64,000 bases of DNA, from the IMG/VR virus record IMGVR_UViG_3300031760_000049, positions 4,010 to 68,009 of that record. One strand, given 5' to 3'. The notes under the pieces were generated by a model, which ran no database searches, was not told the origin of the DNA, and saw only the letters and a program-made list of their open reading frames with translations. Origin of the DNA: a virus (taxonomy: Duplodnaviria > Caudoviricetes). Below are positions 60,091 through 60,508 of this stretch, in pieces. Within the stretch, counting starts at the first letter, position 1; the number at the start of each line of letters is the position of its first letter. Both the position numbers and the translations under genes were made by a program.

Positions 60091-60322
60091 TAGAATATAA
60101 TAAAGTATAAAAAGAAAAAATATATGTAATAATTGTTGAATATTTTTACTTTTGAAATAAATTTGGAGATAAAAATAATATCGTCTTTCTATTTCAAAAT
60201 AAATTTGGAGACAGAGAGTGCGTGGCAAAGAGTATTTAACAAATCAAAAAAAATTTTTTCCCATAACTACCCCCCCATTATTGCTAGGCGCGTTCACTGC
60301 CATTGTGCGCCGAACCCACGAT

Positions 60323-60494
60323 AGAACATGCGTTCGGCTATTCTGCGTTCGAACAGGTGTTCAGCTATGTGTTCCATCTATTCCTAAATGTTTCACGTGA
60401 AACATTGAACACATATTCATTCGAACATACGTTTGTTATCTCACTAAAAACATAAGTACAAGATGTGGGGTATGAAATAACGAACGCACGTTTG
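60323..60494. promoter_or_regulatory. Cluster of five LexA/DinR (SOS) boxes
   Basis: GAAC-N4-GTTY at 60323, 60350, 60422 and 60481, plus a one-mismatch box at 60406. Confidence 0.75.
60389..60404. promoter_or_regulatory. parS: parS centromere-like site (ParB/Spo0J binding)
   Basis: TGTTTCACGTGAAACA is an exact match to the Bacillus-type consensus, extended to a 20-bp palindrome (60387-60406). Confidence 0.85.
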
Positions 60495-60508
60495 TTATTT
60501 CATACCCC
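60467..60508. repeat. Inverted repeat with 15-bp arms centred on an SOS box
   Basis: GGGGTATGAAATAAC-GAACGCACGTTT-GTTATTTCATACCCC. Confidence 0.85.

Follow-up and report, generated by a model that had tools for sequence, protein, structure and literature searches.

The window analysed here is a 64,000-nt stretch corresponding to bases 4010-68009 of a single 68,009-bp IMG/VR virus record (32% G+C). CheckV completeness of the record is ~46% and related contigs span 140 to 197 kb, so the record represents about half of a ~150 kb phage. It encodes a DnaE-type polymerase, RecJ, and a 3287-aa protein with a phage minor-tail domain, which is probably the tape-measure protein. Replication genes occupy the plus strand from 1 to 16.6 kb of the window and late genes the minus strand from 16.9 to 59.2 kb; the first gene of the late operon (57950-59182, minus strand) encodes a 410-aa protein. 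From 59.2 kb to the contig end runs the early region, a plus-strand array of very small genes that each have their own near-perfect sigma-A promoter. Within it a cassette comprising a promoter and a 148-aa gene forms a 754-bp tandem duplication (62266-63912), and the contig stops within a third, diverging copy; thus, the early array is probably longer than its assembled part. No close relative was found in the GenBank phage set by megablast or blastn. Domain searches with the early proteins of the window gave no match and no recognisable DNA-binding domain, and searches of the region for known RNA families and tRNAs returned only sub-threshold chance matches.

Right of the late operon lies a conserved, non-coding, single-copy DNA element of 95 nt (60182-60276; CGT...TTTGGAGA...TGGCAAA...A-run, TTTTTTCCCATAA, C-run). 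It was found in more than 60 related contigs, even where the 410-aa proteins are only ~55% identical. Where present, it occurs about once per genome (in eight of ten genomes, with two overlapping matches in one of them) and always has the late operon on one side and the early region on the other; partial tandem duplication of its left part is frequent. The possibility that the element acts as an RNA was considered and rejected, as there are no consensus pairs at all. Being conserved with no consensus RNA structure, it is best regarded as a DNA signal, for which an origin, a pac/cos site and a terminus signal are candidate functions. Several related contigs, 100 to 197 kb long, stop within a few hundred bases on its right-hand side. 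The order in relatives is the element, a variable spacer, a GC hairpin, boxes with or without parS (in some lineages), TTGCACAAA-type repeats and the first early promoter.

In the window the sequence contains a short GC hairpin (60287-60311, plus strand; GGCGC, 15 nt, GCGCC), and the first early promoter is of sigma-A type (60553-60581, plus strand; TTGACA, 17 nt, TATAAT, extended TG) with a predicted start at ~60588. The island under study sits in the non-coding leader between the element and hairpin on one side and this promoter on the other. A preliminary description had placed here five LexA-type boxes within 172 bp, the third abutting a parS site and the fifth at the centre of a 42-bp inverted repeat ~45 bp before the first early promoter, and all of these features are found in the sequence, with the boxes spanning 60323-60494. 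Mismatches were scored against the 14-mer CGAACNNNNGTTCG (CGAAC-N4-GTTCG), from which boxes 1 (60323-60336, AGAACATGCGTTCG), 2 (60350-60363, CGAACAGGTGTTCA), 4 (60422-60435, CGAACATACGTTTG) and 5 (60481-60494, CGAACGCACGTTTG) each differ at one position. Box 1 is kept in the related locus L022, most core columns of box 2 are invariant in the window, L086, L022 and L054, and box 4 is a GTTT variant that is also found in relatives and upstream of the lexA gene of one metagenome-assembled genome (MAG). Box 3 (60406-60419, TGAACACATATTCA) is weak: it departs from the 14-mer at three positions and from the GAAC-N4-GTTC core at one, and its core lines up with the second L086 box. A single base separates box 3 from parS (60389-60404, TGTTTCACGTGAAACA), a host-type site that matches the 16-bp chromosomal ParB/Spo0J palindrome TGTTNCACGTGAAACA perfectly and lies within a 20-bp palindrome (60387-60406). 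The inverted repeat around box 5 (60467-60508; 20-nt arms, 95% complementary) leaves 44 nt to the −35 hexamer of the first early promoter. A spacer bias with a purine at position 6 and a pyrimidine at position 9 (CGAACRNRYGTTYG) is seen in each of the five island boxes.

Comparison with shuffled sequence confirmed the density of the cluster: four sites with at most one mismatch are present in the island, while in 5000 dinucleotide-preserving shuffles of the island sequence itself the mean was 0.0086 and the observed count was never reached (0/5000). The exact core GAAC-N4-GTTC occurs six times in the window versus 0.53 expected. Throughout the 68,009-bp record, sites with at most one mismatch are limited to the island and to pairs at 62884/62900 and 63638/63654, all of them in the early region. 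The preliminary description had seen no boxes in the replication and structural arms, and our scan of these arms in the record (~46% of the genome) likewise found none with at most one mismatch. A motif search of the window for Rex, NrdR, cre, Spo0A and DnaA operators returned nothing convincing. The island folds well on both strands (z = −6.4 and −7.7), which its palindromes would predict and which is therefore uninformative on a structured-RNA reading; also bearing on that reading, the boxes of relatives come after a terminator-like hairpin. A 60-aa ORF across the island (60218-60400) was rejected because differences in T-run length among relatives break its frame.

Related loci were retrieved with the 410-aa protein, 52 from viral contigs and 8 from MAGs. 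In the 52 viral-contig loci, 36 sites with at most one mismatch were detected in 248 kb of early side, whereas none was detected in 405 kb of structural side. Perfect boxes are present in about seven of ten related genomes and, in relatives having the conserved element, are located on its early side, the exception being one extra site in G004. The four perfect sites of G001 (164 kb, rated complete) are confined to 6.5 kb of early region, compared with zero sites for the reversed control. In several relatives, one-mismatch counts over whole genomes do not exceed those of the reversed control; what distinguishes the motif is its clustering and its perfect sites alone. When every 5-N4-5 palindrome was enumerated, without prior choice of motif, in the early regions of relatives, CGAAC-N4-GTTCG ranked near the top (12 observed versus 0.039 expected), behind only T/A runs and one iteron family, and the motif proved specific for the 4-nt spacer. 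Among 53 distinct boxes of the phage family, purines make up 90% at position 6 and pyrimidines 90% at position 9, neither position having been selected on. Both preferences are those of the Gram-positive LexA consensus, the spacer of which has been refined to RNRY, and this supports a LexA-type operator identity. The Gram-positive SOS box proposed from this DNA alone is thereby borne out by a motif that is family-wide, restricted to the early region, dependent on a 4-nt spacer and in agreement with the LexA consensus at unselected positions.

When the island was aligned with L086, L022 and L054, invariant columns were mostly in the box cores and the flanks had diverged. A GC-rich terminator-like hairpin is found at the same place in relatives, and boxes then follow in L022, L026, L046, L054 and L086. 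In L086, whose 410-aa protein is 72% identical to that of the window, the order is hairpin, box, 22 nt, perfect parS, 11 nt, box and first early promoter. The box-parS-box arrangement at the same place means that the interleaving is conserved in a second lineage; parS occurs in these two lineages only. Given the conservation, an origin of the island by chance or from inert captured host DNA is very unlikely. Many relatives have leaders without boxes that carry other repeats instead (TTGCACAAA, CTAAC-N4-GTTAG or ATGCAT-type), a pattern that would also fit lineage-specific phage-encoded binders. Iteron arrays of the CTAAC-N4-GTTAG type, with ~20-bp spacing, were observed at the same leader position in L028, L030, L048, L054 and L085, and in L054 these iterons are interleaved with LexA-type boxes.

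Counted from the start predicted for the first early promoter, the island boxes occupy positions of about −94 to −265, and they overlap a promoter on neither strand. A LexA operator is expected to overlap a promoter or to lie just downstream of its start, where bound LexA blocks transcription, a position taken up only at 62884-62913 and 63638-63667 and by none of the island boxes. The island, 94 to 265 bp upstream of the start, is thus not the operator of the first early promoter, and at least ten other early promoters within 3.4 kb have no boxes. The earlier proposal that host LexA gates the early region from this cluster gained no support in that form, since the boxes overlap no promoter; simple repression of the first early promoter, and hence repressor-less lysogeny in the manner of GIL01, is unlikely.

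The boxes that do occupy an operator position belong to antisense promoters. The first such unit (62884-62953, minus strand) combines a promoter (62953-62924; TTGACA, 18 nt, TGgTATAAT) with a perfect box at 62900-62913 and a one-mismatch box at 62884-62897, centred at about +10 and +26 of the promoter start. The second unit (63638-63707, minus strand; promoter at 63707-63678) is a duplicate of promoter and box pair in the second copy of the 754-bp tandem repeat. In both, the paired boxes are the arms of a hairpin that is followed by a U-run (−18.1 kcal/mol), so that a derepressed promoter would yield an RNA of ~50 nt, antisense to the 3′ end of the 148-aa gene. Across 27 non-redundant loci, 14 of 48 box centres fall at +4 to +40 of a strong promoter versus 2.7 expected, and the centres of this operator class peak sharply at +10 and +26/+28. 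The remaining centres are mostly upstream, beyond −60, and, measured to the nearest strong promoter of either strand, only one of the 48 lies in the interval −60 to +4. Boxes at +10 and +26 of the antisense promoters are in true operator position, and the island cluster falls in the upstream class.

The minus strand has four perfect antisense promoters (TTGACA, 18 nt, TATAAT, extended TG), at 61497-61526, 62060-62089, 62924-62953 and 63678-63707, which face the ends of early gene cassettes. Two of them read directly into the LexA-box hairpin and U-run, and another reads into the sense terminator (62029-62057). Inverted pairs of TTGCACAAA with a 24-nt gap (62108/62141, 62972/63005, 63726/63759) separate each antisense promoter from the next sense promoter. 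Seven of the nine window copies of this repeat lie in the early region, and it is also found in the leaders of many relatives (L014, L028, L046, L053, L086).

As the record is about half a genome, the absence of a repressor had to be checked in relatives. Domain searches of the record and of G001-G005 found no Peptidase_S24, LexA_DNA_bind, tyrosine integrase or ParB_N; completeness of the near-complete relatives is 100% (G001), 93% (G003) and 97% (G005). This agrees with the absence of a phage repressor that had been envisaged earlier. A serine recombinase is absent from nine of ten related genomes searched; the tenth, G012 (137.7 kb), encodes a 214-aa resolvase-type serine recombinase (G012:C1:66746-67177). 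The MAGs with which related phage contigs are binned carry the labels Bacilli (five), Erysipelotrichaceae and Eubacteriales, co-binning being weak evidence of host. Extended −10 promoters and strong GGAGG-type ribosome-binding sites also point to a Bacillota host. The lexA gene was found in three of five co-binned MAGs, which are candidate hosts; three boxes of the GAAC-N4-GTT[CT] type lie upstream of it in one MAG and a one-mismatch box in another. The three lexA-positive MAGs contain 2 to 5 copies of the identical parS 16-mer each, with none for the reversed control, and these sites suggest a putative host ParB. With no phage LexA, CI-type repressor or ParB, with lexA, boxes and parS in the MAGs, and with Bacillota-type expression signals, host LexA and ParB are the best candidate binders. 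We consider it probable that LexA binds the boxes. Judged from sequence, the island boxes are likely Gram-positive LexA-type operators, bound by a host protein and not by a phage repressor.

We also searched viral contigs for parS sites having a box at a distance of 5 to 35 nt. The scan gave 30 loci versus 16 for the reversed control, so a single box-parS co-occurrence means little. Arrays of 2 to 10 boxes beside parS were found at 8 of the 30 loci versus 1 of 16 for the control motif, and GAAC-N4-GTTC was absent from all 16 control parS loci. Unrelated viral contigs of 36-64% G+C (L099/L112, L098, L103, L104, L106, L107 and L121) have 2 to 10 GAAC-N4-GTTC-like boxes beside a perfect parS; in L112 there are five boxes with a 13-bp period. 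The module of parS and boxes adjoins small or large terminase genes in L112, L103, L119 and L123, and the flanking genes of L098, L106 and L121 are uninformative. Small viral contigs of ~16-17 kb from sample 3300045988 (L102, L116, L124 and control loci L129-L141) form a family whose members carry up to four perfect parS sites each.

The reading that we prefer, with confidence a little short of even, is that the early region is wired to SOS and that the island within it serves host LexA and ParB as a docking pad. LexA dimers and ParB of the host would load on the phage DNA at the island, and the pad would be one part of an arrangement common to the phage family, in which LexA boxes are confined to the early region. 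At the second class of boxes, centred near +10 and +26 of strong antisense promoters, bound LexA would prevent transcription until SOS induction lifted the block. Overall, transcription of the early region would then depend on whether intact, free LexA is still present in the host. As for the pad itself, it may insulate or form a roadblock, regulate the conserved signal next to it or, when genome copies have become numerous, take LexA away from the host.

In an alternative that we regard as unlikely, the boxes are inert in cis and serve purely as a LexA sponge: hundreds of genome copies would soak up LexA, and perhaps ParB, turning SOS on without DNA damage to the benefit of the phage. Such a role would suit the location of the island boxes outside any promoter, their near-consensus sequences, their clustering in the largest non-coding spacers and the free variation of box number among relatives. 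However, a third of the family's boxes are at exactly +10 or +26 of promoters, which implies cis action, in several lineages boxes recur at one and the same place in the leader, with the hairpin ahead of them and the first promoter behind, and the window has no motifs for other host regulators (Rex, NrdR, cre). A cell contains hundreds of LexA dimers, so the earlier suggestion that the array titrates LexA on injection is implausible with ~nine sites per entering genome; at ~nine sites per copy, titration would take place only after replication. We find it improbable that the binder is instead a phage-encoded protein with a LexA-like motif, for example an early-gene shut-off factor or a small terminase subunit. 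That early genes are small and unannotated, that other lineage-specific motif arrays occur at the same place in relatives, and that arrays of GAAC-N4-GTTC with parS adjoin terminase genes in unrelated viral contigs would all be compatible with a protein of this kind. Yet the LexA consensus is matched even at unselected positions, neither a LexA-like DNA-binding domain in relatives nor any DNA-binding domain in the window's early proteins was found, and the same motif is used by phages differing widely in early gene content and G+C, for which a conserved host protein is a better fit.

Two further readings share the host proteins with the docking pad and assign them other tasks. One is a repressor-less lysogeny or carrier state, to which we give a slim chance: LexA, perhaps with ParB spreading from parS, would silence the first early promoter and the lytic programme until SOS, and host ParB would partition the silent genome. 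Relatives without a phage repressor or tyrosine integrase, the parS site, which is kept together with boxes in L086, and the precedents of GIL01 (LexA) and phi29 (Spo0A boxes and parS) speak for it, but no sense early promoter here has a box, a single one of the family's 48 box centres falls within −60 to +4, the ten or more other early promoters in the adjoining 3.4 kb are free of boxes, and operator-position boxes control antisense and not sense promoters. IHF bends or anchors DNA at lambda cosB, and LexA and ParB might similarly be architectural, bending or anchoring DNA beside a packaging, terminus or origin signal; this, too, we think hardly probable. The island does abut a conserved, single-copy, non-RNA DNA element, on the right of which several large related contigs come to an end within a few hundred bases, modules of parS and boxes adjoin terminase genes in four unrelated contigs, and T5 offers a precedent, itself hypothesised. 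On the other hand, most relatives have the element without adjoining boxes, L022 has boxes without the element, and termini need sequencing reads to be placed. The cumulative GC-skew minimum at ~59 kb would also agree with a signal at this place, but phage GC skew tracks transcription direction as well.

Taken beyond this locus, the docking-pad reading leads to a broader picture that we offer as doubtful: a family of ~100 to 200 kb phages of gut/rumen Bacillota, apparently virulent, would wire its early region to the host SOS response with host proteins only, with LexA gating antisense promoters and a LexA and ParB pad beside a genome signal, and the arrays of parS and SOS-type boxes by terminase genes in unrelated phages would reflect a general, as yet undescribed use of LexA together with ParB. 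What the data describe is a large uncultured gut/rumen phage family with conserved LexA-type operators only in the early region, in which no integrase or repressor of its own was found. If host LexA binds, these phages would read or manipulate the DNA-damage state of the host, and this would bear on how antibiotics and SOS inducers shape gut phage activity.

Host LexA is used by a few temperate elements, e.g. GIL01, CTXphi and SaPIs, and to our knowledge phi29 is essentially the only lytic phage that uses a host regulator together with ParB. In a non-exhaustive search of the literature we found no description of LexA boxes in large virulent Bacillota phages. GIL01 is a small temperate tectivirus with host LexA as repressor at promoters P1 and P3 (PMC4551915, PMC6182141); P1 is repressed at boxes just downstream of its start, dinBox1 and dinBox1b (PMC4551915). 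The GIL01 boxes control sense early and late promoters, with gp7 as LexA co-factor and gp6 as LexA homologue (PMC4551915, PMC6182141). The phage described here shares with it the 14-bp palindrome (Cheo box), which is the published Gram-positive LexA consensus CGAAC(n)4GTTCG (PMC4551915), with a purine at position 6 and a pyrimidine at position 9. It also appears, as read from sequence, to lean on the host repressor with none of its own, and has some boxes just downstream of a transcription start. Unlike GIL01, it is a ~150 kb phage with a long tape-measure protein whose relatives have no integrase or LexA homologue, its island boxes are upstream of a promoter without overlapping it, and its operator-position boxes are on antisense promoters. 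Several hallmarks of GIL01-type lysogeny were not observed: no sense early promoter of the window has a box, no LexA DNA-binding-domain homologue was found in the record or its relatives, and nothing indicates lysogeny.

The virulent Bacillus phages phi29 and Nf carry sites for host Spo0J (parS) and Spo0A (0A boxes) (PMC2731898). As in these phages, two DNA-binding proteins of the host, its partition protein and a global regulator, have predicted sites on an apparently lytic phage here; the sites lie close to early promoters and to DNA ends or origins, and through them development would follow the state of the host. In contrast to them, the regulator is LexA (DNA damage) and not Spo0A (sporulation), there is one parS instead of five, and no link to spores is known. 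For the injection stop signal of T5, a role was hypothesised for DnaA boxes within non-coding, palindrome-rich DNA that borders the pre-early genes (bioRxiv 10.1101/866236). Our locus resembles it in that non-coding DNA rich in palindromes, where predicted sites for host proteins cluster, marks the edge of the earliest-expressed region and is conserved in relatives; the host protein is a different one, and two-step injection and terminal repeats would be hypothetical for this phage. Set against GIL01 and phi29/Nf, the nearest precedents, the case stands apart in the type of phage, in the regulator chosen, in its use of antisense promoters and in having a pad clear of any promoter.
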